Positions 2-20,118 of a DNA stretch of 32,000 nucleotides are shown here, in pieces. The stretch is taken from contig CAZXEQ010000003.1 in assembly GCA_964640155.1 (NCBI GenBank), positions 104,189-136,188 of the forward strand, in the 5' to 3' direction. The DNA comes from an uncultured bacterium (GTDB lineage: Bacteria; Auribacterota; JACPWU01). Positions within the stretch are counted from its first letter, which is position 1, and each line of letters opens with the position of its first letter. The notes beneath the pieces were generated by a model. The model did no database searches. It saw nothing but the letters and a program-made list of their open reading frames with translations, and was not told the DNA's origin. A program made the position numbers and the translations under genes.

Positions 2-1000
2 CTACATCCACTAAGAGCCTTAGGAGTGCTTTCAGATGGGCGTATTGTGGCGGGTGGAACATGGGGGAAAATGACAGTTTATAATCCTAGTGATCCTAAG
101 GATGAAGGAGAAAGCTTAAGCGGTTATGATGGGACGATTCATGATATTCAAGTTCTTCCAGATGATTCCATTGTTGTCGTAGGCGCTGGAGGATATGTTA
201 AAAAGTTTGAACTCAAAGCCGGGTCAACTCCGCAATCTTTGGGTCGATATTATCAGTATGATGGTAGACAAATTATTTATAAGACAAGGCGTTTATCCAA
301 TGGCCATTATGTAGTTGTTGGAGAAGGTGGGGCTATTAAAATTTGTGATCCCAATTATCCAGACAGTGAACCTATTCTGGTCGGCCATTATGGAAAAGAT
401 GTTCACGCTCTTGAAATTTTGCCGGACGATACCATTGTAGTGGGTGGAGATGGAGGAGAAATTTTAGCTTTTGAACCCAAAGAAAATGCAAAACCTCATA
501 AATTTGGAAATTATGGGAATGATATTAACATGATTCGCTATTCACCTGCGGATGGAAAGATTTTGATAGGTGGAAGAAATGGAGTGTTAGCGTTTATTGA
601 AAAAGAGATGGTAGGAGTGATGTGCAGTGAAAAAGATTTCGTAAGCCCTATGGGTAAAAAATATTCTTTAGATCAAGTTTCTACAGATCAAGCCAAAGTG
701 TTCATTCCAATTCCTCATGTCACCGATGAAAATTTCTCAAGTGCAGTCACTCGCTTGCAAGCTGAGATTAAAACAGCAGAAGGGGCTGAAAAGAAGAGAT
801 TAGCTGAGGTTCTCATGCATGTTTTGAGGAAAGGGAAACCTGCCCAAAGAAAAGATGGATCCCCGATAGATACACTCGGGGATGACAAACACTCTGTACC
901 ACTGTCATTCCCGAAGGCTTTTATCGGGAATCCATTAGAAGATAAAAAATGGATTCAGTCCCAACAAAAGAAAGAAGAGCTAGGAGTGGGAGATGTTTTC
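2..1000 (+). repeat. Super-repeat module 1 (partial): 5 visible propeller blades plus linker 1, ending at GDVF
   Basis: Blades follow the pattern [AV]L.VL.DG.[IL]V.GG..G.[IL].[IVF][YWF][DN]P, e.g. VLSDGRIVAGGTWGKMTVYNP and ALEILPDDTIVVGGDGGEILAFEP. Linker 1 contains ...TDENFSSAVTRLQAEI... and ends LGVGDVF (GDVF at 989-1000). Confidence 0.75.
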
Positions 1001-4000
1001 AAGACTGAAGGGGTGTTTGTAGAAAGAGTTTCTATATCAGACCGATCACGCACAATAACAACTCAAGCTGTCTTACCCGATGGACGTATTGCTTATGGTT
1101 TTGCAGATGGGTGGGTTGAATTGTGGGATCCTAAGAAACCCCATTTGGGATTTAAAAGAATAGGACAATATGCTGTAGGAAGAGGCAATCAGGAAATCAC
1201 GGTTTTAAAAGTTGTGGCAGGAAAATTATTAATTGCTGGGAAGGCTGGATATCTTGAAGTGTGGGATCCGGAACAGCCTACTCAAAAACCTTGGTGTTTG
1301 GGAGATTACAAAGAAGAAATTTATGCGATTGAAGAATTAGATGGGGAAATTTTTGTCGGTGGGAAAGGAGCAGTTATTCGATATTGGACTTTGGAAGATT
1401 TAAAAAATAAAAAAGAGATTCAGGGAGAAGTTTTGGGACAGTATGGGCATGAATTTAGCAGTGTTTTTAGTTTTCTTGTTGTGGATGGAAAACTTGTAAT
1501 AGGGGGAGGTGTTCAACTAGAATTTTGGGATTCACAAGAGCCAGAGAAAAAAATTCAAAGTACAGCAATGCATGAAGGAGCCACACACGCTTTGCAATAT
1601 TTAGATGGGAAAATTGTTGCTCTTGATTCAAGTGGGCATATCCGTTATTGGGATAAATCTTCTTTGTATGCTCAAGAATCCCAAGTCCCTTATCCTATTG
1701 GAGAGTATGGTATGAAAGCTGAAGCAATGAAGGTTTTGGATGGGAAGTTGTATGTGGGAGGATATGGAGGAGAACTTAAAGTATGGGATCCAGAGAGCTC
1801 ACGAAAAGGTCTGCACAATATATTTCAGTATCAAAATGATGAAGGAGCAAAACCCGGAACAATGAATTATATTACAACTATTTCATATCTTGAAATAGTA
1901 AACGGTCGTTTGTCTATCATAGGCTCCTCTAACGGTGTTGGTGGGGTTACTCTCTTAGAATTTTCTCCAACCGGTGTGGTGAATAGCAAGAATACTTTTA
2001 GATCTCTAAAATCAGGAGTTGAACATCCCCTGTCAAAAATTTCTTCTGAAGAAGTGACCGTTTTAACCCCAGCTCCTCAAGTGGATCATGAAAATCTATC
2101 TAAAGAGGTTGAATCTCGCCAAATGAAAATGAGAACGCTGCAGGAGCAGGATTTTAAAGGAAGAACAGATTTGGCATTGGAGTTGGCCTATATTGCGAGA
2201 GAACATGGGGATAAGGCAGAGTGGATTGAGATAGAAACAAAGAAGGAAGATTTGAAAGTAGGAGAAATATTTGAAGCAGAAGTTTGTGCGGGGATAGAAA
2301 GACAGTTTTTACATCCATATCCAGGTAAAATACGTGCTCAGGCGCTTCTTCCTAATGGAGAGTTGGTGGTAGGAGGGGAAAGAGGAGAGTTGTGGATTTA
2401 CAACACTGGAGACCTTAATGCAATCCCAAGAAAGTTTAAATTTCGTTATCCGGCAGAAATTCATGCCATTAAAGTTTTAAAAGATGGACGTGTGATTGTG
2501 GCCGGGAAAGCTGTTGATTATATAAGCAAAGTATGGATTTATGATCCTATTCATACCGACGCAAGACCTATTCAAATTAAACATTATTCTGGAGGAGATG
2601 TGTATGCTCTTGAGCTTTTGAATAATAGTTTGGTTGCCATTCAAGAGAAAAATGAAATTAAAATTTATGATCCAGACAAACCAGATCAGGAGGCTAAAAA
2701 GTTTTCTTCTCCTTGTGCAGGTGGTGCTGAGATCATGAGATTGTTGAAAAATGGTTTATTAGCTGTTGGCAAGGGAGCGTCAGGAGGGGATGTTGAAATT
2801 TTTGATCCTGCTCATCTGGAAAAACCTTCTAAAGAGTTTGTTTATCGCTATGGAGATGTTGCTGCCATTGAATCTCTCAATGAGAAAGAATTAGCTGTTG
2901 CAGGATTGACAACGGGAGGATTTGGAAAAATAAAAATTTATAATCTTGAAAATTACGACGCAGAACCCCAAGAATTTTCTTTTCCTTATCCTGGACAAGT
3001 TTATGCTCTTCAAGCATGGGGGGATGATTATTTGGTTGCAGCAGGAAGTTCTGGTGTTGTTCTTCTCTATGATAGATGGGATTTAAAGAAGGATCCTGTT
3101 GAATTAGGACATCTAGATATAGAAGAAAAACAAAAACTCAAAAGAATCATTTTTTCATTACAAGTTTCACCTGAAGGACAACTATCGGTGGCAGGTGGCA
3201 ATGGAATCGTAAAAATTTTTGATTTAAAAAATAGAGGTATTGTCAGAGATCAAAACTCTTTTGTCTCTATAGCTACCGGAAAAGTTCATCCTCTAGACAG
3301 TGTTGTGTCGGACGCTGTAACTGCTCGCTCTATTTTGCCTTCCATTAATCCTGAAAATCTTGCTGATGAAATAAAACGTCGAGAAAATGAGATACGCACT
3401 ACAAATGATGAGAGAGAAAAAACAAGATTGGCCAAAGAAATAGAATTTTTGGTTAAAAAATATGGAAAAGAAATGAAATGGTTTGAAATGGAATCAGAGA
3501 AAGAAAAACTGAGAGAGGGTGATATTTTTAAAACGGAAGTAATGAATAAAACATTTCTTGATCCGGACGGTATTGGTTGTGAGGGTGTTGCCTTGCCTAA
3601 TGGTCAAATAGTGATAATAAAGCTTAGAGAATTAAGATTTTATAATCCTAATCACCCTGAAGCGCCTATAAAGACAATAAAAACAGAAAAAGCAATAAAC
3701 AGGATTGAGCTCTCAGCAAATGGGAATCTTGTTCTTTATGAGGCAGGAGACGTTATTGAAATTTATGATCCCATCCAGTACACCCGCTTAAACTTAATAC
3801 AGTTTCCCGGGAGTGCAGATGTTGATGATTTGCAATATTTGCCTGACGAAAGATTAATAGTTCGTGAGAGAAGAGGGGATATTTTAATTTATGATCTTCA
3901 AAATATTGAAAGCGAACCCTATCATTTGAAAAGAGGATATCCATTTTCTTCCGCCACGCAGGTTTTGCCGAATGGGCAGCTTTTGGTTAGAGAGAATAAA

Positions 4001-7000
4001 AAATTAAGGCTATATCAGTTACCTTCTAGAGAGGTGATGAGAGCGCGCGTCGAAAGCATGTTAGCCTGGCACGCATCCAAATGGAAGACACCCATGCCTG
4101 AATGGGATGACTCACTCACAGAATTAGGTAAGGATGATTCTATGATGGCATGTGTTATTTTACCTAATGGCAATATTGCTATAGGTACATATGAAGGACA
4201 GATCAAAATTTATGATATTCAAAATTTAAAAAAAGGGGATGTGCCTCCTCCACCTACGAGATTTGCTTATTTCAAAGGCAAAATTATAGAAATGGCCTTG
4301 TTGTCTCCTACACGTTTAGTTGTCGCTAGAGAAAATGGTTTATTGGAAATGTATGATTTAACTCGACCTGACTTACCTCCTAAACCTCTAGGGAATTTTG
4401 GCGGTGAAATACTTTCCCTTTCCGTGTTGAAGGATGGGAGGTTGATGGTTACGGGCGAGGGAGGAAAAGTCGAATTTCTGGAATTCAGTATAACCGGGAT
4501 TCTATTGCGAGATAAGACGTTTCGTTCTTTTGCAACAGGGCAGACTTATGATGTGAGCAATATCGTTTCTGACGCTGTGATGACGTTGCATCCAATACCC
4601 TACATAGACCCTGAAAATTGGAAAGAAGAAGTAGAAAAACGCATTCATGAAATGAAATTGGCTCAAAGTGAACATGAAAAGAAAAGATGGGGTTTGGAAG
4701 CAGTGCATATTGTTAGAGAACATGCAGACAAAATGGAATGCGATAAGAAAGATCTTAAGCCCGGTGATGTATTTGAGATGAGAGCCATGATTCAGCAAAA
4801 AAATGATTCAAAAGACACGGTTTTTACCCAAGCGATTCTTCCAGATGGGCGTGTGGTATATGGTGATGAAGGAGAATTAAAAATTTATCATCCAGATGCT
4901 CCTCATGAATTATTCCAATCTATTCCGTTCTCTCAATTTGACTCTGTCCAGGATTTGCAAGTTGTTGAAAACAAACTTTATATGATAGATCGAAATGCGA
5001 ATCCCTATCTTTATCTTTATGATTTTTCTGAATCAGGAAAGGGAGTTCAAAGAGTAAAGCACGAGTTTAATAATGGAAAAATCTATGGTGTTTGGTCTCT
5101 GAATGGAAAGATTTATGTGGCGAATGATAAAGGAGAAATTTATGTTTGTGATTTCTCCGAAGGTCCACTTAAATTTAAACCTTTGGAAAATGGCAAAACA
5201 GAGATGTTTGTAGACTCTATGCAATGGTTGAATGGAAAGCTTTATGTGAGTGGACATACGGAAGATGGATCAATGGTAGCTATCAGTATGGGTTTAACTA
5301 CAACATACAGACATGTGAAAGTATATGATCCTGATCATCCTCAACAAGGATTTCGAGATATTAAAGTTATGGGCAAGAATGATGTTTCTTTTTCAAATTT
5401 ACAAGTTTTAGATGGGAAAATTTATATGGGAGTCTCTGGCAAAGGATTGACAGTCTTTGATCCTCAAAAACCAGATGATGGATTTTTGCTTTTGAATGGA
5501 TGCGAATATCGTCATTCAATCAGACATGTACGCGTTATGAATGGAAAACTTGTAATGGCTGGAGAAAAAGAAATTTTGATTTATGATCATAAAAATCCTT
5601 CTCTGGGACTTCAAAAGTTAGCTGAAATTACAGAGTTTATTTTTAGCTTAGAGGTATATGACAATACAAGAATTGCTGTAGGGTTAGGTAATCAACAGAT
5701 TCTCTTAAAAATAGATGCGATTGGTATGGTGATGGAGGGTGAAAAGTTTGTAGATGTGGAAAGTGGTAGAGAGTATGCATTACAGGATGTTTGTGGGGAA
5801 CGTGTAGCGGTACATTTGTCTATACCTGCGATTACATCTGAAAACTTTGTGGATGAGGTGAAGAGACGGCAAGCGCAGATGGTGACAGAATCGGATGAAA
5901 GAGAAAGAAGGTGTTTGGCGGAGGAGTTGAAGAGGGTTTTAGGGAAAGATTTTAGTGAAAAGGGATGGACTCCAGAAGAGAAAGTAAAAGAGGCTTTGAT
6001 GCCAGGAGATGTGTTTAAAGTAGATGTAATTGCGAAGACATTGATTGAAGGAGATGGAGTAGATATTTGGACGGGTATTGTTTTGAAAGATGGTCGAGTG
6101 GCTGTCGCAAAAGGAGATAAAGTATTTATTCATAACCCACAAAAACCGGAGGCTCACCCCATAGAGATTCCAGCTACTCATTTGGTCAGGGCGATAGAAG
6201 AGTTACCTGATGGTCGGCTTGTTGTTTCAGGGGTGTCAGAAATGGTGACAATACACAATACTCTCACACCAAATCGCTATGTTCAGTTTACGCATCTTTA
6301 TGGGGATGAAGTTAATGCCATTAAACTTTTACCCAATGATCTTTTGGCTGTAGCTGGAAGAAGTGGAAAAATTCTTATCTATGATCTCAAAGATTTAACA
6401 AGAAGGCCTTACGAATTAAAGAAAGATGATAATCGAACCATTTTCGTCTTAGAGGTTTTACCCAATGGAACTCTTTTTGTCGCGGACTACATGGGAAGGG
6501 CAAGTATTTATTCAATTCCAGGCCAAGAAGTTTTTAATCAGCAGTCGATGGAGTCTCAAACTACACCAGATTATTTAATTGCTGAGTTAGAAACTTATGG
6601 GATACCAAAATTGGGAGGTTTAGAGTGCACATCCATTCACTCTTGCGCGCTTTTACCAGATGGAACTCTAGCACTGGGAGGAGATGGTGGGGAGATTTTT
6701 ATTTATGATGTTTCAAAAGTTAGAAAAGGTGAGAGGCCGCCGAAACCTAAAAGACTGATAAATTTTGGTGGCAATATTAGAGCGATGACTTATTTATCTC
6801 CACATCATCTTGTTGTGGCTGGAGCAAGTGGTGCAGTAAAGATTTATAATTTAAACCATCCAGAACTTCCTCCTCGAGAAATATTTAGTTATGGAAATTG
6901 GGTTAAGACATTGAAAGTATTGGAAGATGGTAGGTTATTGATAGCAGGTTTTGGAGGGGAAGCCGTGATTTTAGAATTAAACGTGTTGGGACTAATGACA

Positions 7001-10000
7001 GGGGATAAAACTTTCGAATCTCTTCAGACAGGGGAGAGTTATCGATTGGATGATGTTCAAAGTTCAAAGGTTCAGAGATTAGAGGTGAAGGAAACAGTTT
7101 CTAGAAATGTGGTGTCATCGCGAGTCCCCCGACGTAGTATCGGGGGACGTGGCGATCTCGTAGATGGGATTGCTTCGTCAGCCGATAAATCGGCTTCACT
7201 CGCAATGACGGAGTCAGAGCAAAAAACTAAAATCACAGAAGCTTTAGATGCTCCATTCACTCCAAAATATCCTAGCCTACCTTTTTATTTTGCTTTAGGT
7301 GAGGATGGAATTGTTTATCTCAATTATCAGGGACGATGGTATCCGACGAAGCATAAAGCAGTCACCAGTCGCCAGTCTTCAGTCGTCAGTGAAAACAACA
7401 GTGAGACGATTTATTATGAAACTGTCATTCCGGCGAAGGCCGGAATCCAAACCTCTCTGGATCCCGGATCGCGCTCGCATTTAGCTCGCTTGTCCGGGAT
7501 GACCAAACAAAAAGTTCGACTTCTGCAGCTTTCTGACATTGTGCATCCATTGGAAAGAATGGATTCCCGATTGAAACCTTCGGGAATGACAGGAGGAGAA
7601 CGGACACTTATCCCTCGGGATTTTTTGATGGAGACAGAAGTGTTGAAGGGTGTAGAGGCTTCTGTTTTGAAGGCGTTTCAAAGAGGTTGGGCTGTTGATT
7701 TAGAAGGTGGACCGGGTGGCGGAAAAACAAGTATGGCCCGTGAAGTGGCTCTTCTTCTGGGACTTCCTTCCTATGTTTTTCAAATGCATGGTCAAAGGAC
7801 ATTATCAGATTGGATTGGGGGATATAGCGAAGATGGCAAAGGTCATTTAACTAGGAACAATCTTCCCAATGATGAAGGTCATTTCCGACAAGAATTGCTA
7901 GAGGCCATTACGCATGGGGGTGTTTATGTTGTAGATGAGGGCGCCGTTGGAAAAAAAGGACGTGAACTTTTAAATTGGTTGGCTCCATTGTTAAGAGCTT
8001 TAAGGACTCGTGGTGATGGACGTAAAATTTTTCTTCATGAATTTCCAACTTTGGCGAAAGAATTAGGTATAGAAACCCCCCTGGAAATATCTTTAGATTT
8101 TCATTTGGTGATCACGAATAATAAAGCGGGTGAAACTCAAGCCCGTGAAGTGATGAAAAGTGAGGTAGCAACAGAAGTAGTATATGTTGATGTAGATGAA
8201 GATGATGGGCCTGAAACGTTGCAGAGGTTATTCCTTCATTTTACGCAAGATTTAGGGGTTGATGCAACCATAAAAGAAAATCTTGCAAAGCATTTAAGTG
8301 AATTTCATTGGGCTTTGAAAGAGAGAATTGGAAAAGATTTGGGGGTCGATGATAAAGATAGACATTATCTTTCTAAAAGAGAAATTCGTAGGGCTGCACG
8401 TCTGATGCGTTGGGCTCATTCTCAGAACTCGGAAGCGGATCCCGTTTTTGATTTTTATGTATCTTTAAGAATTGCCTATGAATCCATGTTTACTCATGCT
8501 TGGGAAAAAGATGAGGTTGAGAGAATTTTAAGAGAAAAAATTGAGAATATAGAGTCGGGCAGTTATGAGCGTGTGACCAAGAAATTTGACACTTTAAAGG
8601 AAAAAGCATTTGGTAAAACCGTCAGATCTAAAATTGTGACAGGCCCGGAATTAGAAGAGGCTTTTTTAACAAAAATGAGTATGGAGGCCGGAGAACCGGT
8701 GCTTCTTTTGGGGGAATTAGGGGCACGTGTTTCAGATGTTGTTCGTCGAGTCTCTGAAGAATTAAATGCAGAAGTAAATATTATTGATGCAGATCCTCAA
8801 CAATCTCGTCAGGAAATTCTGGGAGGGCCTTTCCCAGATGTTCGACAAGGAAGTAGTAAAAATATTGCACATATCTTGGGTAAGTTGGTTCAGCATTTGA
8901 TGACCAAAGAACAGATGGAAGCTTTAGAAAGTGCAGGAGAAAAACTACACCCTCAAGTTTTGTGGATTCGAAATATTGATTTATGGAGTGAAGATTTAAG
9001 AACCGCCTTAAATGGATTTTTGGAGGATGGATATATTCGTTTAGAAAAAGGTGACGGTACGATAGAGACTTATTATCGTCCCTCTCATGTTCACATCATT
9101 GCAGACATGGGTTCAGAGTCCATACAAGATTTTTCAAGCGCCTTTTTTAATCGCTGGGTGAAAATAGGAATTTCTAGAGAGAATCCTCCTGAAGACTGGA
9201 TTTATTCCAAGCCAGAGGTTTTGGGTATGCTGAGCAAGAAAGCAGAAAAACAGGCGGAACAGTTGATTGTTGCCGTTAGGGATGCAAAAGTTCTTTTGCC
9301 GATGGAGGGAGGTTTTTATCGTTTTAATCCAGAGCTTAATTTGGAAAATTTTCCTCAAAGTCTCAAAGGCGAAAAAATTTATACTCAATTCTTGAGATCT
9401 TTAAAAACTAAAAATCAACTTTCTGATTTTGAAAAAGTATTGGTGAATCGTTTTGGCATGAGCCTTCGAGAAGCGGAGGACTTGACCCGATTGTATGTTT
9501 CTTTGATGGATATTGATTCAGCTCAAGGGGCGCAGCGCTGGAAGGGAGAAGCCCATTATGGTTTTGGCCCCACTTTGTTCTATGCTTTAGCAGAATCGAT
9601 TCAAATGGCCAAACGTGAAGATTCTAAAATTTTAGCTTTAGAAAGACAATTAAGAGAACAGTATGACGTAAATTTTGAACATGTTTTGATTCATGGACCT
9701 CCTCCGGGTTCTTCAACAGATGCAATCGATCTTTATAAAGCTTATATTTCTGCTTTAAAGAAAATGATGGCAGAAGAAATTTTAAGAATTATTGGTACAA
9801 GATTAAAACCTTTGGATCGTCCTGATTTTGAACAACTTCTTCATTCAACATTAGATTTGGAAGTTCCTCCTGGGCTCAATACTTCTGTTCATACCACGAC
9901 GGGTACACTGGAAGGTCAGGTTACTCGTATCGGCAATGTTGCTCTTCAGGCTAGAGAAGGGGCTAAAGGCCCTCTAGAAGTTTCTAAAGATCATCGTGTT

Positions 10001-13000
10001 AGGTACGGTGGCCAATCTGTAGAAGAGGGCTTGGCTGTTCTGGCTCGTGCTTCACAGCTTGGAAAGGCTGTAGCTTTGGTGGGTGAACCGGGTGTCGTAA
10101 AAACTACTTTAACGGGACATTTTGCAGAAATTACAGGGAGGAAATATTATAAGTTTCAATCTCATAAAAAAAGTCGTGTGGAAAATCTTACATTTGAAGT
10201 AGAGCAGGAAGCAGATGGGACTTTCCATAAGAAAATTCAAGAGCTTTATCAATATCTTCGCGAAGGAAATGTAGTCATTGATATTGATGAAGCGAATGCT
10301 CAACCCGAAATTCTTTGGCTTTTAGGTCCTGTCTTAAGAGGTGAAGAATGGATTTATCCCATTTTTCCAGGAGAGCCTCCTTTTAAAATAGGCAGAGGAG
10401 TACAACTTGTATTTACCTATAATCCAGCTCATTTTTCAGGTCGAAGTGAAATGGATAAGCGCATTTTAGATTTAATGATTGTGGCATGGCTTGAACCTCC
10501 TAAAAAAGAAAATAAACCAGCTATTACTGAAACTTTCTGGGGTGTTTGGGCTGAAAAAGTTGCAAAAGTTGAAGAAGATAAGTTTCCTCAAAGATTTGAA
10601 GTTCATGTACCACCGGTTGAAATGCCGGCTGATTTAGCAAAAGATGTTGGTTATGATCATGCAAGGATTCATGAAACGATTACTTCTTTTGATCAAACTA
10701 CGAATCAAACAGATAAAGTAGACATTTTCTTGAAAGTTTTACCTGAATACTTTTTAGCTTTGGCTAATCGGGATGGAGCTAGATATGATCAAGACATGCT
10801 CCGTATGGCTGCTATTTTAGATGGATTTTTAGCAAGGTCAGGTCAGGAAAGCAGAATCGTTAGAGATCTTGAAGTTCTACAAAAAGAATATCATCGCTCT
10901 TCTCCCGACAAAACTCGATTACGCTACGGCATATTAGAATTTAGAAAACATTTTTTAAAATTTGATCGGCATTTGATTATTTTTATGTTCACTCCCAAAA
11001 ATCGTACAGTTCCATTTTTGCGCATTTATCCCAATAAGATTTTAGATCGAATCACCCTTTCACATAAAGAAGGATGGGAAACCAGTGGAGAAGCTCTGGT
11101 GATTGAAGGACATGGATTGGAGAAAGGAAATAAGATGGGCTATTTTGATGGAGAATATGCTCTCGTCAATACCCCTAAGACAGGAGGCGTAAAGCATATT
11201 CAAACAGAATGGACGGCCCACCATGAATTAGGGCATCGAAATGATCAAGCCCCGCATAAAACAATTCCTAAAAATATTGAAATGAACTCTATGCTCAGTC
11301 CACTTATGCATTCTAGAGAAAAGAAAAATTATATTGAGGAAGAATTGGCTGGTTGGGTGTCGAGTGGACAGAACAATTCTTATTATACTCAAGCATCAAA
11401 AGGAATATTGAATGGGCTTGTACAAAGATGGTGGGAGTTGAATAAGACAACAGGGAGACCTCCTCAAATTGATGATGTATTTGCAGATGCTGATATTAAA
11501 GCAGTATTAGATTTGGTTCTCACGATGGATGAAGCGACATTAGAAAGTTTAGCTCTTTATCTTTACGATCATCCTAGATATCTAGAAAGCGGCCAAAAAG
11601 GGGCTTATAAACAACGCGTGTCTACGGGAACTGCAGAGCAGGGGGGTGGAGAAGAAGAAATTATGGAAGGAGTGGATGGAGAAATTGAAGTCGATGTTGA
11701 AATGGTGGAAGGAGGAGCCACTCCGGAAGTAAATGTATCAAACCCAGAAGGTTCGGATACGGTTCAAGAAACGAGTGGTGAAAATCTAACTCCTGAAATG
11801 GAAGCTCGTCGCCAAAAAGATTTAGAAAAACAACATCGCAAAACTGAAGACCTGAAGAAAAAGTTAGAAGAAGAAACAAAAGCCTCTGGAACGGAATACG
11901 ATCAAATGATCATGGGAGGACAAGGTCAGGCTGAAAGCATTTTTGACAGGATATTACGCGCGTTTCGATCTAAACGTAAAACAATTACCATTCGTTTAAG
12001 ATCCGGTTTAGAAGTAGATCCTATTGCTCATATGCTCAGACTCTATAATCGATTTATCAAACGTGAAGAAGTTTTTGACATGCAAACACATGCTGTTTCT
12101 GTTTTGATGGATTTTAGCGGAAGTTTGGCTCCTTTTAAGAAACAGATAGCCTATGCGGTGCGGGCGATTGGAGATAATTTTTGGAAATTGAAATGGGCAG
12201 CTTCTCGCCATTTTTATTTTGATTTATCGTTTTATACAGGAGCGGATCCCGTTACTATGATGGAAATGGGCAGGCTTTATTCAGAATCAGAATGGAAAGA
12301 TAATTGTGTCAAAATGGGAAGACAAATCGGAGATGGAGACAATAATTTACTCAATGCTCTGAGCAAAAAATTGAAGGATTTCGTAGGGTCAGATGTAAAA
12401 GCGGATGTACGCCGGGCAAAGCTTAAAACTTTGATTTTGTTTACGGACGGTCAAGATACTGCAATTATCGGTGGTGATAAACCCATACCTTCAAGAGAAT
12501 TTCAACAGGAGTTAAATCGGTATCGCGCTTTAGGAATAGAAATTTTTGCGATCGGATTTGGAGCAGGGGCAAAGCCTGTTGAAGCTTTTCATGGAAAAGG
12601 ACAACATTTTATCAAGATCGGTGCCCAGCGTCCTTATGATGTACCGGAAGTCATTGCAAAAATTATGGAAGCAAGATCGCGTGGATTAGGAATGATTCCT
12701 GATGGAGATGTCACTCATTTTTTTGGAATTGATGAGAAGGGTGCTCCTCAACTTACGCCAGAAGAAACACAAGCATCACCACAGTCTTTTTCTTCGTCTT
12801 CGCCAAGCTCTACTGGGGGAGGCTCATTTGCACGCATGCTTCCTCCTGAAGCCAGTGTTGCGCAAATGGTTGTAAGTGGTTCAAAAGTCATAGAATCTTT
12901 GCCAGGTTCAGAACGCTCAGGAGCCACTCGTGTTATCGTTGATGCCATAGCTGAAAAAATGAGAGCTGCTTCGGATTATGCTCATAGTGTTGTAAGGGGA

Positions 13001-13063
13001 CTGCCTTCGACTCAATCTAGAAAAGTATCCTCAAGAGAAGTTGTTTTAGATCAGGCTGCTTAG
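2..13063 (+). CDS. Giant multidomain protein, 5'-partial (>4,350 aa visible): >=6 tandem WD40-like 7-bladed beta-propeller modules, 3 AAA_5 (MoxR/midasin-type) ATPase modules plus one vestigial P-loop, acidic linker, C-terminal VWA/MIDAS domain
   Basis: One frame is open from nt 2 to the TAG at 13061-13063. The track start (GTG at 26) lies inside a propeller blade: nt 2-25 translate LHPLRALG, continuing into VLSDGRIVAGG, which matches the blade consensus. The ORF therefore continues upstream of the window. Motifs read from the translation: Walker A GGPGGGKT (7706-7729), Walker B VYVVDE (7922-7939), Walker A GEPGVVKT (10082-10105), Walker B VVIDIDEA (10271-10294), MIDAS DFSGS (10110+2000 region, exactly 12110-12124). 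Confidence 0.9.
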   Translation, partial: LHPLRALGVLSDGRIVAGGTWGKMTVYNPSDPKDEGESLSGYDGTIHDIQVLPDDSIVVVGAGGYVKKFELKAGSTPQSLGRYYQYDGRQIIYKTRRLSNGHYVVVGEGGAIKICDPNYPDSEPILVGHYGKDVHALEILPDDTIVVGGDGGEILAFEPKENAKPHKFGNYGNDINMIRYSPADGKILIGGRNGVLAFIEKEMVGVMCSEKDFVSPMGKKYSLDQVSTDQAKVFIPIPHVTDENFSSAVTRLQAEIKTAEGAEKKRLAEVLMHVLRKGKPAQRKDGSPIDTLGDDKHSVPLSFPKAFIGNPLEDKKWIQSQQKKEELGVGDVFKTEGVFVERVSISDRSRTITTQAVLPDGRIAYGFADGWVELWDPKKPHLGFKRIGQYAVGRGNQEITVLKVVAGKLLIAGKAGYLEVWDPEQPTQKPWCLGDYKEEIYAIEELDGEIFVGGKGAVIRYWTLEDLKNKKEIQGEVLGQYGHEFSSVFSFLVVDGKLVIGGGVQLEFWDSQEPEKKIQSTAMHEGATHALQYLDGKIVALDSSGHIRYWDKSSLYAQESQVPYPIGEYGMKAEAMKVLDGKLYVGGYGGELKVWDPESSRKGLHNIFQYQNDEGAKPGTMNYITTISYLEIVNGRLSIIGSSNGVGGVTLLEFSPTGVVNSKNTFRSLKSGVEHPLSKISSEEVTVLTPAPQVDHENLSKEVESRQMKMRTLQEQDFKGRTDLALELAYIAREHGDKAEWIEIETKKEDLKVGEIFEAEVCAGIERQFLHPYPGKIRAQALLPNGELVVGGERGELWIYNTGDLNAIPRKFKFRYPAEIHAIKVLKDGRVIVAGKAVDYISKVWIYDPIHTDARPIQIKHYSGGDVYALELLNNSLVAIQEKNEIKIYDPDKPDQEAKKFSSPCAGGAEIMRLLKNGLLAVGKGASGGDVEIFDPAHLEKPSKEFVYRYGDVAAIESLNEKELAVAGLTTGGFGKIKIYNLENYDAEPQEFSFPYPGQVYALQAWGDDYLVAAGSSGVVLLYDRWDLKKDPVELGHLDIEEKQKLKRIIFSLQVSPEGQLSVAGGNGIVKIFDLKNRGIVRDQNSFVSIATGKVHPLDSVVSDAVTARSILPSINPENLADEIKRRENEIRTTNDEREKTRLAKEIEFLVKKYGKEMKWFEMESEKEKLREGDIFKTEVMNKTFLDPDGIGCEGVALPNGQIVIIKLRELRFYNPNHPEAPIKTIKTEKAINRIELSANGNLVLYEAGDVIEIYDPIQYTRLNLIQFPGSADVDDLQYLPDERLIVRERRGDILIYDLQNIESEPYHLKRGYPFSSATQVLPNGQLLVRENKKLRLYQLPSREVMRARVESMLAWHASKWKTPMPEWDDSLTELGKDDSMMACVILPNGNIAIGTYEGQIKIYDIQNLKKGDVPPPPTRFAYFKGKIIEMALLSPTRLVVARENGLLEMYDLTRPDLPPKPLGNFGGEILSLSVLKDGRLMVTGEGGKVEFLEFSITGILLRDKTFRSFATGQTYDVSNIVSDAVMTLHPIPYIDPENWKEEVEKRIHEMKLAQSEHEKKRWGLEAVHIVREHADKMECDKKDLKPGDVFEMRAMIQQKNDSKDTVFTQAILPDGRVVYGDEGELKIYHPDAPHELFQSIPFSQFDSVQDLQVVENKLYMIDRNANPYLYLYDFSESGKGVQRVKHEFNNGKIYGVWSLNGKIYVANDKGEIYVCDFSEGPLKFKPLENGKTEMFVDSMQWLNGKLYVSGHTEDGSMVAISMGLTTTYRHVKVYDPDHPQQGFRDIKVMGKNDVSFSNLQVLDGKIYMGVSGKGLTVFDPQKPDDGFLLLNGCEYRHSIRHVRVMNGKLVMAGEKEILIYDHKNPSLGLQKLAEITEFIFSLEVYDNTRIAVGLGNQQILLKIDAIGMVMEGEKFVDVESGREYALQDVCGERVAVHLSIPAITSENFVDEVKRRQAQMVTESDERERRCLAEELKRVLGKDFSEKGWTPEEKVKEALMPGDVFKVDVIAKTLIEGDGVDIWTGIVLKDGRVAVAKGDKVFIHNPQKPEAHPIEIPATHLVRAIEELPDGRLVVSGVSEMVTIHNTLTPNRYVQFTHLYGDEVNAIKLLPNDLLAVAGRSGKILIYDLKDLTRRPYELKKDDNRTIFVLEVLPNGTLFVADYMGRASIYSIPGQEVFNQQSMESQTTPDYLIAELETYGIPKLGGLECTSIHSCALLPDGTLALGGDGGEIFIYDVSKVRKGERPPKPKRLINFGGNIRAMTYLSPHHLVVAGASGAVKIYNLNHPELPPREIFSYGNWVKTLKVLEDGRLLIAGFGGEAVILELNVLGLMTGDKTFESLQTGESYRLDDVQSSKVQRLEVKETVSRNVVSSRVPRRSIGGRGDLVDGIASSADKSASLAMTESEQKTKITEALDAPFTPKYPSLPFYFALGEDGIVYLNYQGRWYPTKHKAVTSRQSSVVSENNSETIYYETVIPAKAGIQTSLDPGSRSHLARLSGMTKQKVRLLQLSDIVHPLERMDSRLKPSGMTGGERTLIPRDFLMETEVLKGVEASVLKAFQRGWAVDLEGGPGGGKTSMAREVALLLGLPSYVFQMHGQRTLSDWIGGYSEDGKGHLTRNNLPNDEGHFRQELLEAITHGGVYVVDEGAVGKKGRELLNWLAPLLRALRTRGDGRKIFLHEFPTLAKELGIETPLEISLDFHLVITNNKAGETQAREVMKSEVATEVVYVDVDEDDGPETLQRLFLHFTQDLGVDATIKENLAKHLSEFHWALKERIGKDLGVDDKDRHYLSKREIRRAARLMRWAHSQNSEADPVFDFYVSLRIAYESMFTHAWEKDEVERILREKIENIESGSYERVTKKFDTLKEKAFGKTVRSKIVTGPELEEAFLTKMSMEAGEPVLLLGELGARVSDVVRRVSEELNAEVNIIDADPQQSRQEILGGPFPDVRQGSSKNIAHILGKLVQHLMTKEQMEALESAGEKLHPQVLWIRNIDLWSEDLRTALNGFLEDGYIRLEKGDGTIETYYRPSHVHIIADMGSESIQDFSSAFFNRWVKIGISRENPPEDWIYSKPEVLGMLSKKAEKQAEQLIVAVRDAKVLLPMEGGFYRFNPELNLENFPQSLKGEKIYTQFLRSLKTKNQLSDFEKVLVNRFGMSLREAEDLTRLYVSLMDIDSAQGAQRWKGEAHYGFGPTLFYALAESIQMAKREDSKILALERQLREQYDVNFEHVLIHGPPPGSSTDAIDLYKAYISALKKMMAEEILRIIGTRLKPLDRPDFEQLLHSTLDLEVPPGLNTSVHTTTGTLEGQVTRIGNVALQAREGAKGPLEVSKDHRVRYGGQSVEEGLAVLARASQLGKAVALVGEPGVVKTTLTGHFAEITGRKYYKFQSHKKSRVENLTFEVEQEADGTFHKKIQELYQYLREGNVVIDIDEANAQPEILWLLGPVLRGEEWIYPIFPGEPPFKIGRGVQLVFTYNPAHFSGRSEMDKRILDLMIVAWLEPPKKENKPAITETFWGVWAEKVAKVEEDKFPQRFEVHVPPVEMPADLAKDVGYDHARIHETITSFDQTTNQTDKVDIFLKVLPEYFLALANRDGARYDQDMLRMAAILDGFLARSGQESRIVRDLEVLQKEYHRSSPDKTRLRYGILEFRKHFLKFDRHLIIFMFTPKNRTVPFLRIYPNKILDRITLSHKEGWETSGEALVIEGHGLEKGNKMGYFDGEYALVNTPKTGGVKHIQTEWTAHHELGHRNDQAPHKTIPKNIEMNSMLSPLMHSREKKNYIEEELAGWVSSGQNNSYYTQASKGILNGLVQRWWELNKTTGRPPQIDDVFADADIKAVLDLVLTMDEATLESLALYLYDHPRYLESGQKGAYKQRVSTGTAEQGGGEEEIMEGVDGEIEVDVEMVEGGATPEVNVSNPEGSDTVQETSGENLTPEMEARRQKDLEKQHRKTEDLKKKLEEETKASGTEYDQMIMGGQGQAESIFDRILRAFRSKRKTITIRLRSGLEVDPIAHMLRLYNRFIKREEVFDMQTHAVSVLMDFSGSLAPFKKQIAYAVRAIGDNFWKLKWAASRHFYFDLSFYTGADPVTMMEMGRLYSESEWKDNCVKMGRQIGDGDNNLLNALSKKLKDFVGSDVKADVRRAKLKTLILFTDGQDTAIIGGDKPIPSREFQQELNRYRALGIEIFAIGFGAGAKPVEAFHGKGQHFIKIGAQRPYDVPEVIAKIMEARSRGLGMIPDGDVTHFFGIDEKGAPQLTPEETQASPQSFSSSSPSSTGGGSFARMLPPEASVAQMVVSGSKVIESLPGSERSGATRVIVDAIAEKMRAASDYAHSVVRGLPSTQSRKVSSREVVLDQAA
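859..931. repeat. Two 8-bp-stem palindromic hairpin units lying in frame inside linker 1 of the giant ORF
   Basis: ATCCCCGA(859-866)/TCGGGGAT(876-883) and ATTCCCGA(907-914)/TCGGGAAT(924-931), both perfect inverted repeats read directly. They encode ...SPIDTLGDDKHSVPLSFPKAFIGNP..., a ~30-aa stretch with no counterpart in linkers 2-5. Confidence 0.7.
1001..2272 (+). repeat. Super-repeat module 2: 7-bladed WD40-like propeller plus linker 2
   Basis: Seven blades, each ending in W/Y-D-like dipeptides (VELWDP, LEVWDP, IRYWT, LEFWDS, IRYWDK, LKVWDP, TLLEF). Linker: GVVNSKNTFRSLKSG...DHENLSKEVESRQ...LKVGEIF (GEIF at 2261-2272). Confidence 0.75.
2273..3529 (+). repeat. Super-repeat module 3: 7-bladed propeller plus linker 3
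   Basis: Seven blades (LLPNGELVVGGERGELWIYNT ... SPEGQLSVAGGNGIVKIFDL). Linker: GIVRDQNSFVSIATG...NPENLADEIKRRE...LREGDIF (GDIF at 3518-3529). Confidence 0.75.
3530..4774 (+). repeat. Super-repeat module 4: 7-bladed propeller with a ~40-aa insert between blades 4 and 5, plus linker 4
   Basis: Blades LPNGQIVII..FYNP ... LKDGRLMVTGEGGKVEFLEF. Insert: PSREVMRARVESMLAWHASKWKTPMPEWDDSLTELGKDDSMM. Linker: GILLRDKTFRSFATG...DPENWKEEVEKRI...LKPGDVF (GDVF at 4763-4774). Confidence 0.75.
4775..6016 (+). repeat. Super-repeat module 5: 7-bladed propeller plus linker 5
   Basis: Blades with an [DN]GK[IL][YV] signature as in module 2 (LNGKIYVANDKGEIYVCDF, LDGKIYMGVSGKGLTVFDP, MNGKLVMAGEKEILIYDH). Linker: GMVMEGEKFVDVESG...TSENFVDEVKRRQ...LMPGDVF (GDVF at 6005-6016). 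Confidence 0.75.
6017..7110 (+). repeat. Super-repeat module 6: 7-bladed propeller with a blade 4/5 insert as in module 4, and a truncated linker 6
   Basis: Blades LKDGRVAVAKGDKVFIHNP ... LEDGRLLIAGFGGEAVILEL. Its last three blades align with module 4 (KGERPPKPKRLINFGGNIRAMTYLSPHHLVVAG vs KGDVPPPPTRFAYFKGKIIEMALLSPTRLVVAR). Linker 6 starts normally (GLMTGDKTFESLQTG). The helical ...EN...E..R...GD[VI]F half is missing and the hairpin-rich spacer stands in its place. Confidence 0.7.
7125..7587. repeat. Cluster of five palindromic hairpin units (same stem family) lying in frame between the propeller array and AAA-1
   Basis: Perfect stems: TCCCCCGA(7125-7132)/TCGGGGGA(7140-7147); ATTGC..AGCCGAT/ATCGGCT..GCAAT (7169-7206); ATTCCGGC(7427-7434)/GCCGGAAT(7439-7446); ATCCCGGA(7461-7468)/TCCGGGAT(7493-7500); ATTCCCGA(7563-7570)/TCGGGAAT(7580-7587). 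The region is visibly more GC-rich than its surroundings and is open in several frames on both strands (track ORFs 7072-7260-, 7299-7484+, 7425-7607-, 7481-7681-). Confidence 0.7.
7640..8420 (+). other. AAA_5-type ATPase module 1 (intact Walker A/B) of the giant protein
   Basis: GGPGGGKT (7706-7729), hhhhDE VYVVDEG (7922-7939), sensor-1-like VITNN, and a downstream lid helix LSKREIRRAARL. These match the MoxR/CbbQ/midasin AAA_5 pattern. Confidence 0.75.
8695..9175 (+). other. AAA-like module 2 with degenerate nucleotide-binding motifs
   Basis: PVLLLGELGARVS replaces Walker A (no GK[ST]). VLWIRNIDLWSEDL replaces Walker B. A C-terminal SSAFFNRWVKI resembles the AAA_5 '..A...RF..i' end. Probably a non-hydrolysing module. 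Confidence 0.5.
9692..9718 (+). other. Vestigial P-loop-like motif HGPPPGSST (possible remnant of another AAA module)
   Basis: VLIHGPPPGSSTD resembles hhhhGPPGxGKT but lacks the Lys. No Walker B is recognisable downstream. Confidence 0.25.
10028..10503 (+). other. AAA_5-type ATPase module 3 (intact Walker A/B)
   Basis: AVALVGEPGVVKTTL (Walker A 10082-10105), VVIDIDEAN (Walker B 10271-10294), sensor-1-like LVFTYNP, and terminal DKRILDLMIVAWLEPP. Confidence 0.75.
11641..11885 (+). other. Acidic D/E-rich segment followed by a K/E-rich helix, immediately upstream of the VWA domain
   Basis: GGGEEEIMEGVDGEIEVDVEMVEGGATPEVNVSNPEGSDTVQETSGENLTPEMEARRQKDLEKQHRKTEDLKKKLEEETK, read directly from the translation. 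Confidence 0.8.
12085..12680 (+). other. C-terminal von Willebrand factor A (VWA) domain with a MIDAS motif
   Basis: VSVLMDFSGSL (DxSxS at 12110-12124), LILFTDGQDT (~12431-12460) and IFAIGFGAG match the canonical VWA strand/MIDAS pattern. Confidence 0.8.
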
Positions 13064-17094: not shown

Positions 17095-20000
17095 ATGAAT
17101 ACTCAGATGAGTTGTTTGTATAAAAAAATTGTATGCCTTTTGGTGTTTCCTCTTGTTTTAACTCAAGCGATGGGCTCTCCTTCTCTGGAGGAAAATTCTC
17201 AAGAAAATTCAACGAGCACAGACTTAAGTGAAATATATTTCCCTTCGAAAATTGGAGTTGTGACTGATTCCTATCAAAGTACAAAAAATCAAACAACTAT
17301 TTTTTATATCAAGGATATTCATTGCAATCTAGAAGGTCAGCTTAATATTTCTAAAATGATTGAAGAGCTTTCAAAAAAACAGAGAATTCAACTTGTCTTG
17401 GTTGAGGGTGCTCAAGGAAAAGTTCAGACCGATCTCTTGGGCTGTTTCCCAGATTCAAAGATTCGGAAAAAGGTGAGTAGAAAATTTTTGGCGAAAGGTT
17501 TTATCAGTGGGTGTGAATACCTTGCAATTTCAAAATTTAATAAAATTCCTATTCACATCTATGGCATTGAAGATGAGCAACTTTATCTTAAGAATTATTA
17601 TTTTTTTAAAGAAGTTTATGAAAAAGCAAGTGATACTAATCAATTTATGAACGTTTCGAAGATATTCATTCAAAGGTTAAAGAGAAAAGTTTTTAATAAA
17701 AAGCTTTTGAAAGTCGATCACGATTGGAAGGAGTATCAAGAAGGGAAATTAGCTTTGGTGAAATTTGTTAAGACTCTTTCTCGAGAAGAATGGAATAACC
17801 GTGCGTCTCCTAATCTTGTAAAACTTTTGAAGATTTTATCTGTTATAAATCAGAAGAATCCTTCTCTCTTGGAAAAAGAACATAGATCTTTTATTCAAAG
17901 ATTAAGTCAAATTCTATCTGCCGATCAGACACAAGTTCTTATCAAGTTAATTCTAAAAAAGAGGTTGAGTAAAATTTCAGATGAAGAATATTTTTCAAGA
18001 TTAAAAAATATTCTTCCATCAAATCACATCACAAGACTTCGTAATCAATTTTCTGTTCTTTTTGGGGTTTTTGATTTGCATCGCTTCTTGAAAGAAAAAA
18101 GTGAGAAGTTGGCTTTAGAGTTAGAGGATGCTGTAGATTTATTGTTTGAGAGGCTCGCAAAAACAGAAGAAGAAAAAAATCTACTTAATCTTTCTTTAAA
18201 ATTAGAAACTTTAGAAAAAGCTTTAACATTAACTCTTTCTAGAAAAGAATTTGAGAAAGAAGGTCAAAATTTTGATCTCGATCAGTTTATTCAACATTTA
18301 GAAAGTCTCTATAAAAAGCAAAGCGATAATTTTTCTGTAAATAAAATTGATTTTTTATGGATGAAAAAAATGAAAGGACTTGTTGAATCTGGGAAGTCTT
18401 TTTATCGACTTGCTTTAAAAAGAGAAGATCAAATGGTTCAAAATGCGCTTCAGAAAATAAAAGAGGAAGGTGTACAAAAGGCTATTTTGATTGCTGGAGG
18501 CTTTCATTCTCAGGGGTTGATGGAAAAATTGAAAAAACGAGGTATTTCTTGTATTGCTATAATGCCAATACTAAAAAAGAGAGATGAGGGGCATTTGTAC
18601 TTAGAACGAATGCTGTCTCAAAACATCAACTTAAAGTTTATTCAAAATTTTTCTATTTCTTCTCTTTCAGTTCTAGATCTTCTTTCAGATACAGCTTCTA
18701 ATGATGATGATCGAACAGAATTTTTAAGAAGTTTTTTTCATTATATGGTTACATTTTATGGAGCAGATTCCTTAGATGATGAAGAAACAGTTATTCATCG
18801 ATGGCGGCAACAGGTTATTGCCCTTCATTCAGAATTATTATTAGACTTTAATCAAGTGGTGGAATCTTTATTGTTTTTAGCAAAGACCATTGCTTTGGGT
18901 CAAAGAGAAATTGTGCATGTTTTAAAAGATTCGTTAGGGAATCAAAAGAAAATGTTGCAAATGAAAGTTATTCTTTCGTTTTTGTATCGAGAGCAACTGT
19001 CTGTCTATGATGAGATAAAGTTAAAGATCGATCATCCTAGCCTTATAGCTTATATGACACAATTAGAGGAAAGTCATTACATCACAAATCGATTTGGAGT
19101 TTGGGAGGTTTCAGATGATACAAGAAATGATAGAGATTCTACAGATGTAAGTGCAACAGCTGATCTTTTAGGTGAAGACAATATTCTCGCAGAGAGTGAT
19201 TCAGGTATGGGAGTGGCGTATCGCATTAACGAAGGTCGTGCTATTTCTGAGCGGGAAAGATTAGAAGAAGTTTTTAGTATTCTTTCTAATTTTTGTAAGG
19301 CAAAACCTCGAATTCCATGGATTCAAATACAAACGGATCATCGAGGGAAATATCTTTATTTTTGTGGTTCTCGAATTCTTAGTATAACGCCAAAAACTTT
19401 TTTGAGGGATGCAGCGGTGTCGTTTTTTATCAGAGATGCCGATCATGTGGAAATAAGAAAAGGAGGCGTAAGCTATATTTTAGGAACTACGGGGACGATG
19501 GATATTTTAGAGGATGATATTTCTACCGTTTCTCATGCAAAGACTTTATTGAGAAGACAAGTACAGCGCTTAAGATTAATTCATGAAGATAAAATACAAA
19601 TTAGAAATTATTGGGAAGCGTTTTGCCGTTATTTTCAGGATAAAGCTTCGGAAGGGAGTCCATATCGACATGCAATTGTAGCTTTTTTTATAGATGAGAT
19701 TTTGAAAAATTTAAGTCGACAGGCTCCGCCTGAAATTCTAGGTTATGCCTTAGTGGTTTTAGATCAGCTGAGAGAAAAAATTTTAGAACTCGTAACTGAG
19801 AAAGAAGAGGAGGGGAATTTTGAAAATCAAGCTTCTTTTCGTTATGTCATTCGTTTTTGTGGATATTCCCTTTTAGGTTATACGCAATATCGTTTTTTTA
19901 TTCCTATGGAGTCTTTAGACCAGACCATTGCTCCAATCACTCAAGTAACTGCGACCTTATTAGAATCTCTTTTGAATGAACCACAAATTGCAAGAACTTC

Positions 20001-20118
20001 GTCTGTAGCAGAAATGGCAGTAGCCGAGTTAGGTAGAGGTAGGGCAAACTTTTTTCAATCTGCTCAAAGAGGGTTGATGGAAAGAAGAAGTAGTTCTATT
20101 CTTGAACAAGCAGCTTAA
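17095..20118 (+). CDS. Large secreted/exported protein of unknown function (1007 aa); the N-terminal half has Tiki/TraB/GumN/ChaN-like GxxH-type motifs
   Basis: N-terminal signal-peptide-like MNTQMSCLYKKIVCLLVFPLVLTQAMG. TIFYIKDIHCN...QLVLVEGAQG (~17300-17430) and KAILIAGGFHSQGLMEKLKKRGISCIAI (~18481-18560) resemble the paired '..H' / 'vvvGa.H..G...L...G' motifs of that superfamily. The C-terminal ~500 aa has no recognisable motif except a tail shared with the giant ORF. Confidence 0.7.
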   Translation: MNTQMSCLYKKIVCLLVFPLVLTQAMGSPSLEENSQENSTSTDLSEIYFPSKIGVVTDSYQSTKNQTTIFYIKDIHCNLEGQLNISKMIEELSKKQRIQLVLVEGAQGKVQTDLLGCFPDSKIRKKVSRKFLAKGFISGCEYLAISKFNKIPIHIYGIEDEQLYLKNYYFFKEVYEKASDTNQFMNVSKIFIQRLKRKVFNKKLLKVDHDWKEYQEGKLALVKFVKTLSREEWNNRASPNLVKLLKILSVINQKNPSLLEKEHRSFIQRLSQILSADQTQVLIKLILKKRLSKISDEEYFSRLKNILPSNHITRLRNQFSVLFGVFDLHRFLKEKSEKLALELEDAVDLLFERLAKTEEEKNLLNLSLKLETLEKALTLTLSRKEFEKEGQNFDLDQFIQHLESLYKKQSDNFSVNKIDFLWMKKMKGLVESGKSFYRLALKREDQMVQNALQKIKEEGVQKAILIAGGFHSQGLMEKLKKRGISCIAIMPILKKRDEGHLYLERMLSQNINLKFIQNFSISSLSVLDLLSDTASNDDDRTEFLRSFFHYMVTFYGADSLDDEETVIHRWRQQVIALHSELLLDFNQVVESLLFLAKTIALGQREIVHVLKDSLGNQKKMLQMKVILSFLYREQLSVYDEIKLKIDHPSLIAYMTQLEESHYITNRFGVWEVSDDTRNDRDSTDVSATADLLGEDNILAESDSGMGVAYRINEGRAISERERLEEVFSILSNFCKAKPRIPWIQIQTDHRGKYLYFCGSRILSITPKTFLRDAAVSFFIRDADHVEIRKGGVSYILGTTGTMDILEDDISTVSHAKTLLRRQVQRLRLIHEDKIQIRNYWEAFCRYFQDKASEGSPYRHAIVAFFIDEILKNLSRQAPPEILGYALVVLDQLREKILELVTEKEEEGNFENQASFRYVIRFCGYSLLGYTQYRFFIPMESLDQTIAPITQVTATLLESLLNEPQIARTSSVAEMAVAELGRGRANFFQSAQRGLMERRSSSILEQAA

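Follow-up and report, generated by a model that had tools for sequence, protein, structure and literature searches.

According to the accepted view, most prokaryotic AAA+ proteins possess a single AAA+ domain, and it was MoxR that gave rise, early in the evolution of eukaryotes, to the six-module chain of dynein and midasin (PMC3495828, PMC3791482). In the bacterial MoxR-VWA pairs (NorQ-NorD, CbbQ-CbbO, RavA-ViaA) a homohexamer of one-module ATPase subunits is coupled to a von Willebrand factor A (VWA) domain with a MIDAS site, which resides on a separate protein. MoxR proteins are also part of the multi-gene vWA-MoxR ternary conflict systems, where a P-loop variant GXXXTAKS occurs in the beta-propeller and FtsH subsystems (Kaur, Burroughs, Iyer, Aravind 2020; PMC7159879). 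Here a giant bacterial protein of the same AAA+ clade is described, in which six diverged modules and a VWA domain are contained in one open reading frame (ORF). Part of its gene lies in a stretch of 32,000 nucleotides (nt), in the following called the window, from an uncultured bacterium of the Auribacterota (JACPWU01; assembly GCA_964640155.1, contig CAZXEQ010000003.1, positions 104,189 to 136,188 of the forward strand). The region of interest in the window, 7640-12680, is considered, with moderate confidence, to represent the C-terminal half-ring (modules 4-6), together with the effector tail, of an ATPase from the MoxR/midasin/dynein clade that has six modules in a single chain. Full-text literature searches yielded no description of bacterial six-module midasin-like proteins, and in a preprint on giant genes (10.1101/2023.11.21.568195) AAA_5 is listed only among the frequent domains of Omnitrophota giant proteins; a bacterial family with a six-module AAA+ chain is largely undescribed.

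AAA+ modules of the giant protein

The region is enclosed by a single giant ORF on the + strand (nt 2-13063, the stop codon ending at nt 13063), which is open at the 5' edge of the window, has no start inside it and comprises at least 4,353 codons. The translation is identical, throughout its 4,353 residues, to a protein of 6,910 amino acids (aa), P0005, which is 2,557 residues longer at the N-terminus; window residue n is residue n+2557 of P0005, and window residue 1 is its residue 2558. The domain order of P0005 is: an N-terminal hydrophobic segment, about 900 aa of helical sequence, modules 1-3, seven beta-propellers, modules 4-6, a zincin-like HExxH domain, an acidic linker and the VWA/MIDAS domain.

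Three stretches of the window protein were matched by Pfam AAA_5 (E 1e-21; 77.8 bits versus a cut-off of 22), as were the homologues P0001, P0003 and P0004; NCBIfam searches with the C-terminal 1,853 aa gave only sub-threshold matches to GvpN and Lon P-loops. In an AlphaFold2 model of window aa 2540-3519 (predicted local distance difference test, pLDDT, 72.8; predicted template modelling score, pTM, 0.69) exactly three alpha/beta AAA+ cores were present, with helical lids between them. The motifs quoted in the original prediction (GGPGGGKT, VYVVDE, GELGARVS, IRNIDLW, HGPPPGSST, GEPGVVKT, VIDIDEA, DFSGS and TDG) were all recovered in one frame, at the positions given for them. Judged by Pfam AAA_5 and by sequence matches to midasin and NorQ, the modules belong to the AAA_5/MoxR-midasin-dynein clade, as had been proposed. 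In modules 4 and 6 the Walker A Lys and the Walker B Asp-Glu are invariant in the alignment with four homologues (in module 4, columns G30, G33, G35, K36, T37, D106 and E107), which agrees with the canonical motifs claimed for both; module 6, however, has no Gly before the P-loop Lys, its sequence being GEPGVVKT here and GxTGxAK[ST] in relatives. The claimed loss of both motifs in module 5 was confirmed, and the degenerate pattern itself (G-[AS]-R / N-[IM]-D) is invariant in the four homologues.

Two candidates for additional folds were rejected. HGPPPGSST, regarded as the remnant of a further module, forms the loop between two long helices in the AlphaFold2 model (helices 669-692 and 700-724, loop 692-700) and is not conserved in P0002, P0003 and P0004. 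The segments 8420-8690 and 9180-10020, in which cryptic AAA folds had been suspected, are helical in the model, with only two small hairpins; the second segment is partly absent in P0003 and P0004, where part of the module 5 extension is missing (alignment columns 531-613).

The N-terminal extension of P0005 carries a second conserved cluster (residues about 915-1745), which is common to nearly all long relatives. An AlphaFold2 model of this cluster, obtained from an alignment of 11 sequences (pLDDT 79, pTM 0.79), contained three more alpha/beta AAA+ cores, giving six AAA folds in P0005, three of them inside the window. In these models of medium confidence all six cores show a helix-2 beta-hairpin and a pre-sensor-1 beta-hairpin, made of paired short strands (e.g., E69-71/E77-79 and E136-140/E153-156 in module 4). 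Each cluster is predicted to form a three-module arc. Both arcs aligned in Foldseek searches with arcs of the dynein motor over about 1,000 columns (E about 1e-20 to 1e-22, template modelling (TM) score about 0.5-0.58), the best match of the window cluster being 7z8h (dynein-1 AAA1-AAA3; E 6e-22, TM 0.51/0.47).

Comparison of the modules with hhalign separated an active class (modules 2, 4 and 6; within-class scores 89-120) from a degenerate class (modules 1, 3 and 5; 61-96), with cross-class scores of 12-25. This split bears out the alternation of active and degenerate modules that had been noted in the window chain. In the whole protein the order is degenerate-active-degenerate, propeller insert, active-degenerate-active, a strict alternation which would run on across a closed ring. 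Module 2 has an intact Walker A motif and Ser-Glu in Walker B. Each degenerate module has retained an invariant Arg, within a [DN]-R-[VW] or S-R-A motif aligned to NRF of midasin; the active modules are without this Arg and keep an N-[NP]...G/A-R motif, aligned to NP..GGRK of midasin. The dead modules could therefore act as Arg donors to the adjoining live sites. That six modules of alternating type are present in one protein is regarded as very probable.

Relatives and probable closure of the ring

A three-module profile, made from the window sequence and four homologues, was searched against 1.84 billion representative proteins. It gave 928 matches with P0005 on top; 81 were below 1e-30, mostly of 3,000-7,600 aa, and the family thus comprises at least 81 clusters at 50% identity. 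Named members are from Omnitrophota, Elusimicrobiota (including Candidatus Liberimonas magnetica), Planctomycetia, Auribacterota and metagenome-assembled genomes (MAGs) of Chlamydiota. Their annotations do not go beyond "AAA family ATPase", "MoxR-like ATPase" or "hypothetical protein". The nearest relative of the giant protein is from a Candidatus Auribacterota MAG (52-55% identity).

For a survey of architectures, the representatives were scanned with hidden Markov models of the two AAA clusters and of the HExxH and VWA domains; counts refer to the 47 proteins whose C-terminal cluster is complete and preceded by 900 aa or more. All except one possess the N-terminal cluster as well (46/47). 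The two clusters are contiguous, with gaps of 41-291 aa, in 21 relatives, and in the contiguous members modules 2, 4 and 6 carry the only three Walker A motifs. An insert separates modules 3 and 4 in 18 relatives (518-3,360 aa, that of the window protein being the largest), and modules 4 and 5 in seven others (about 680-2,200 aa; P0025, P0026, P0028, P0031, P0032, P0034 and P0036). Giant insertions are thus tolerated at two different ring junctions. The sole long relative without a recognisable N-terminal cluster, P0064 (4,005 aa), contains repeated units resembling modules 4 and 6 and may have a different arrangement of modules. That nearly all relatives possess both clusters, and 21 have them side by side, speaks most strongly for the six modules forming a single unit into which the propeller array was inserted secondarily.

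The original prediction had taken the region for a reduced midasin-like motor with only three to four AAA modules per chain, which would have to oligomerise or to adopt another ring geometry. Only three AAA folds are indeed visible inside the window, but the window edge truncates the ORF, three further folds are present in the complete protein, six contiguous modules are found in 21 relatives, and the supposed fourth remnant is a helix-helix loop. A reduced motor is refuted for this gene, six complete AAA folds being the condition that the original prediction itself had named for its refutation; the reduced architecture was an artefact, since the window cuts the giant gene, and the case shows that truncation by a sequence window can mimic such an architecture.

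Closure of a single intramolecular hexameric ring by the two arcs appears likely. In such a ring the nucleotide sites of modules 2, 4 and 6 would each be completed by the next degenerate module, with module 1 completing the site of module 6. Alternatively, the arcs of a six-module chain could assemble between chains, either as separate rings of paired C-terminal and paired N-terminal arcs or as a domain-swapped dimer. The spacer of 3,360 aa would permit this, half-rings can in principle pair symmetrically, and the two arcs were modelled separately; like-with-like pairing, however, would produce the orders A-D-A-A-D-A and D-A-D-D-A-D (A, active; D, degenerate), breaking the strict alternation seen in the contiguous relatives, and gaps as short as 41-118 aa in contiguous members argue for an intramolecular ancestral ring. 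Assembly between chains is thus held to be quite unlikely.

Comparison with midasin, dynein and other rings

Like midasin (Rea1/Mdn1), the giant protein has six modules of the AAA_5 clade in one chain, in two alternating sequence classes, followed by an acidic region and a C-terminal VWA/MIDAS domain. All six P-loops are kept in midasin (GMPGSGKT, GETGIGKT, GPTSSGKT, GETGCGKT, GSPGVGKT, GPSGSGKT), whereas every second module is dead in the giant protein; the suggestion that active and inactive modules alternate by established design in dynein and midasin does not hold in this respect. Further differences are the splitting of the ring by the propeller insert, the HExxH domain ahead of an acidic linker of only about 100 aa, the lack of a matched linker domain, an Asn in place of the MIDAS Thr, and the bacterial distribution of the family.

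Midasin was the best sequence match in the PDB of both clusters (profile E 1e-27 to 1e-29); with the window sequence E was 8e-7, and each of the three modules aligned. Together with the shared layout of six modules, acidic region and MIDAS, this could point to a midasin gene that moved from a eukaryote into bacteria and was then remodelled. The scores of single modules in HMMER, however, were no better for midasin (12-24 bits) than for NorQ (22-25 bits; E 5e-5), and the family has a broad and deep distribution in several bacterial phyla. In the PDB sequence searches nothing of midasin was aligned apart from its AAA region and a low-complexity acidic stretch; the midasin linker remained unmatched, and an unrelated HExxH domain takes up its place in the giant protein. 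A colinear orthology with midasin AAA1-AAA6 was rejected by the hhalign matrix: modules 5 and 6 scored worst against their colinear partners M5 and M6, the bacterial active modules scored 89-120 against each other and 54-123 against midasin modules, and the midasin modules form odd and even classes of their own, which are far closer to each other than to the bacterial modules. Transfer from a eukaryote has therefore almost no probability. The family is rather classed as a bacterial MoxR-VWA variant, which is midasin-like in layout and not a midasin orthologue; a deep common origin is possible.

The dynein heavy-chain motor was the best structural match of both predicted arcs, the resemblance being confined to the fold of these arcs; its ring, too, is built from one chain, and large insertions lie between its modules or inside them. 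In contrast to midasin, dynein gave no match at sequence level in the PDB searches; Pfam dynein domains were not detected, and neither a stalk nor a microtubule-binding domain was identified. The N-terminal 915 aa of P0005 matched no Pfam family, including dynein-specific domains. The pattern of dead modules also differs, since the degenerate modules of dynein are AAA5-6 and not every second module. Co-operation of active and inactive units is a feature of alternating heterohexameric AAA+ rings such as Pex1/Pex6 and those of the BchI/BchD type, BchD having the order AAA-like domain, acidic linker, VWA; these consist of separate polypeptides and belong to other clades or form stacked rings.

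C-terminal tail, further features and meaning of the family

Between module 6 and the acidic linker lies a conserved, undescribed domain with a zincin signature, which was found in about 30 representative proteins. Its motifs HExxH, N-x-E and YYxQAxKGIxNG are invariant; in an alignment of 14 sequences this applies to residues H73, E74, H77, N90, E92, Y127, Q129, A130, K132, N136 and G137. No meaningful relatives were obtained with Pfam (E up to 10), with Pfam on 14 members or with a profile search of the PDB; from its motifs the domain looks like a putative zincin metallopeptidase. Most family members have a VWA domain at the C-terminus or close to it. Among 26 of them DxSxS and the TDG Asp are invariant, two having TDA instead of TDG, and the MIDAS columns of the family profile align with those of TRAP, PTMP1 and integrin I domains. 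The claim of a preserved MIDAS site is correct for these residues; the Thr ("GGT") is, however, replaced by Asn (N4114) in the window protein and its nearest relatives, while most of the wider family have Thr. In P0003 a transglutaminase-like peptidase domain takes the place of the zincin and VWA tail, in keeping with the MoxR-vWA-peptidase scheme put forward in PMC3495828.

If this scheme and the examples of midasin, NorQ-NorD, CbbQ-CbbO and RavA-ViaA are followed, the tethered MIDAS site would capture an acidic residue of a target protein, and the ring, turning over ATP chiefly at modules 4 and 6, would remodel or pull on the target; the adjoining HExxH domain may cleave it, and the array of seven propellers would serve as a large binding platform. 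This assignment of remodelling and peptidase functions is tentative, and doubtful as it stands.

The same parts would allow another interpretation, namely a fused vWA-MoxR ternary conflict (immunity) system, in which the propellers sense an invader or damage and the ring with the VWA domain releases a peptidase effector. Beta-propellers, MoxR-type AAA+, VWA and peptidase components make up the parts list of those systems, the P-loop of module 6 resembles their GxxxTAKS variant, tail domains are swapped between family members (zincin plus VWA vs. transglutaminase-like), and planctomycetes and other members of the Planctomycetota-Verrucomicrobiota-Chlamydiota (PVC) group are common to both. The known systems are, however, distributed over several genes (MoxR, vWA protein and a third component), each AAA+ chain having a single module, and no six-module fusion was described among them. 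Besides, the neighbourhood of the giant gene is of the housekeeping type, without conserved partners in 10 loci, and Pfam searches of the window protein, its relatives and the N-terminus of P0005 revealed no known death or effector domain. An immunity function is thus unlikely, though less so than assembly between chains.

Several points weigh against the six-module ring with its remodelling function. The Ser-Glu in Walker B of module 2, instead of Asp-Glu, and the missing Gly in module 6 bear on the number of sites which may hydrolyse ATP. The two arcs come from separate AlphaFold2 models. In the window protein an Asn stands in place of the MIDAS Thr. The searches detected no relative of the HExxH domain with a known structure or function, so that its putative peptidase activity is suggested by motifs. 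The hydrophobic N-terminal segment of P0005 could mean that the bulk of the protein is extracytoplasmic, where an ATPase would not work. Finally, no neighbour genes were conserved across 10 related loci and the window, where the matches were antisense shadow ORFs within the giant genes only, and there is no genomic pointer to a substrate.

The features of the gene in the window are compiled in Table 1.

Table 1. Features of the giant gene in the window (nt positions of the window; residues in window numbering)
Feature	Position	Strand	Details	Basis
Giant gene, C-terminal part	2..13063	+	4,353 codons + stop	ORF call, identity with P0005
Beta-propeller (WD40-like) super-repeats, about 410-450 aa each	2..7261	+	linker motifs at aa 237, 692, 1113, 1532 and 1941	many Pfam WD40 / beta-propeller matches
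Motif PFYF..G..G.VYLN..GR....HK ahead of C-terminal AAA cluster	7280..7357	+		conserved in P0001, P0003, P0004
In-frame insert, three small REP-like hairpins, outside motor	7424..7592	+		DNA fold z = -3.0; gap in homologue alignment
AAA module 4 of 6 (C1, active type): core, lid, connecting helices	7637..8686	+	Walker A GGPGGGKT 7706-7729 (K2575); Walker B VYVVDE 7922-7939 (E2646); sensor-1/Arg motif TNNKAGETQAR 8114-8146; lid motif LSKREIRRAA 8369-8398	Pfam, alignment, AlphaFold2, hhalign
AAA module 5 of 6 (C2, degenerate type)	8687..9886	+	core 8687-9172; dead P-loop GELGARVS 8711-8734; dead Walker B IRNIDLW 8966-8986; invariant Arg motif FFNRW 9143-9157; long helical extension 9173-9886, enclosing HGPPPGSST loop 9692-9718	alignment, AlphaFold2, hhalign
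AAA module 6 of 6 (C3, active type)	9887..10558	+	variant Walker A GEPGVVKT 10082-10105 (K3367); Walker B VIDIDEA 10274-10294 (E3430); YNPAHFSGR 10418-10444	Pfam AAA_5 best stretch 3357-3491, alignment, AlphaFold2, hhalign
Conserved undescribed domain with zincin signature, ~365 aa	10559..11653	+	HELGH 11222-11236; N-x-E (E3760, 11279-11281); YYTQASKGILNG 11381-11416	motifs in 14 sequences
Acidic, then Lys/Glu-rich, linker, ~100 aa	11654..11953	+	27% Asp+Glu over 91 residues	composition
VWA domain with MIDAS site	11954..12751	+	DxSxS D4037 to S4041, 12110-12124 (DFSGS); N4114, 12341-12343; D4149 of TDG, 12443-12451	Pfam VWA weak (E 1.4e-4), family alignment, profile alignment
Ser/Pro-rich C-terminal tail, unconserved	12752..13060	+		alignment, composition

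Propeller array: The 2,400 residues upstream of the window AAA cluster are WD40-like propellers according to Pfam, and the entire array constitutes the insert of 3,360 aa between modules 3 and 4 of P0005. Of its seven repeats, one partial and five complete ones are inside the window. Each super-repeat consists of a propeller and a helical linker with the motif P..EN[FLW]..EV..R, followed by GD[IV]F; this periodicity of about 410-450 aa suggests a recent tandem amplification of the unit.

Small inserts and N-terminus: Hairpins resembling repetitive extragenic palindromes or miniature inverted-repeat transposable elements (REP/MITE-like) are present in frame at 7424-7592 and 872-932, with the stem ATTCC[CG]G / C[CG]GGAAT and flanks GTC...GAC; they are translated as VIPAKAGIQ...LSGMT...SGMTGG and LGDDKHSVPLSFPKAFIGNP. 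The insert at 7424-7592 is missing from all homologues. Similar translated inserts (SPLKLRGV, IASPTARNDT, PLESRGDRGV) were observed in the N-terminal part of P0005, outside the window. Residues 1-40 of P0005, also outside the window, are a hydrophobic start resembling a signal peptide or membrane anchor, MRSGSSFWHVFFRKINSWIIIFSFLLSSIPELNEPLWA.

Neighbouring genes: Downstream of the giant gene are the housekeeping genes lpd, lipA, a moeB/thiF-like gene, a gene for Cu/Zn superoxide dismutase, bioD, thiL and tsaE. The nearest match of Lpd is from a Chlamydiae-labelled MAG (65% identity). An ORF of 1,007 aa at 17095-20118 (+) matched no Pfam family at E up to 0.001.

It is decidedly improbable that this PVC/Elusimicrobiota family is the prokaryotic sister or source of the midasin-dynein lineage; if true, the six-module alternating chain with acidic tether and MIDAS would have arisen in bacteria and been inherited or acquired by the eukaryotic ancestor, which would replace an early-eukaryotic origin from one-module MoxR. 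Several uncultivated bacterial phyla encode single-chain six-module proteins of the MoxR/midasin clade, predicted to be rings and fused to a MIDAS domain. Their design combines three probable nucleotide-binding modules with three dead modules which have kept a conserved Arg, and accommodates insertions of kilobase scale at two junctions. The family should thus provide an independent bacterial test case for the evolution and working of concatenated AAA+ rings, an outgroup for rooting the modules of midasin and dynein, and a core that bears a function for part of the giant genes still unexplained in Omnitrophota, Elusimicrobiota, Planctomycetota and allies.

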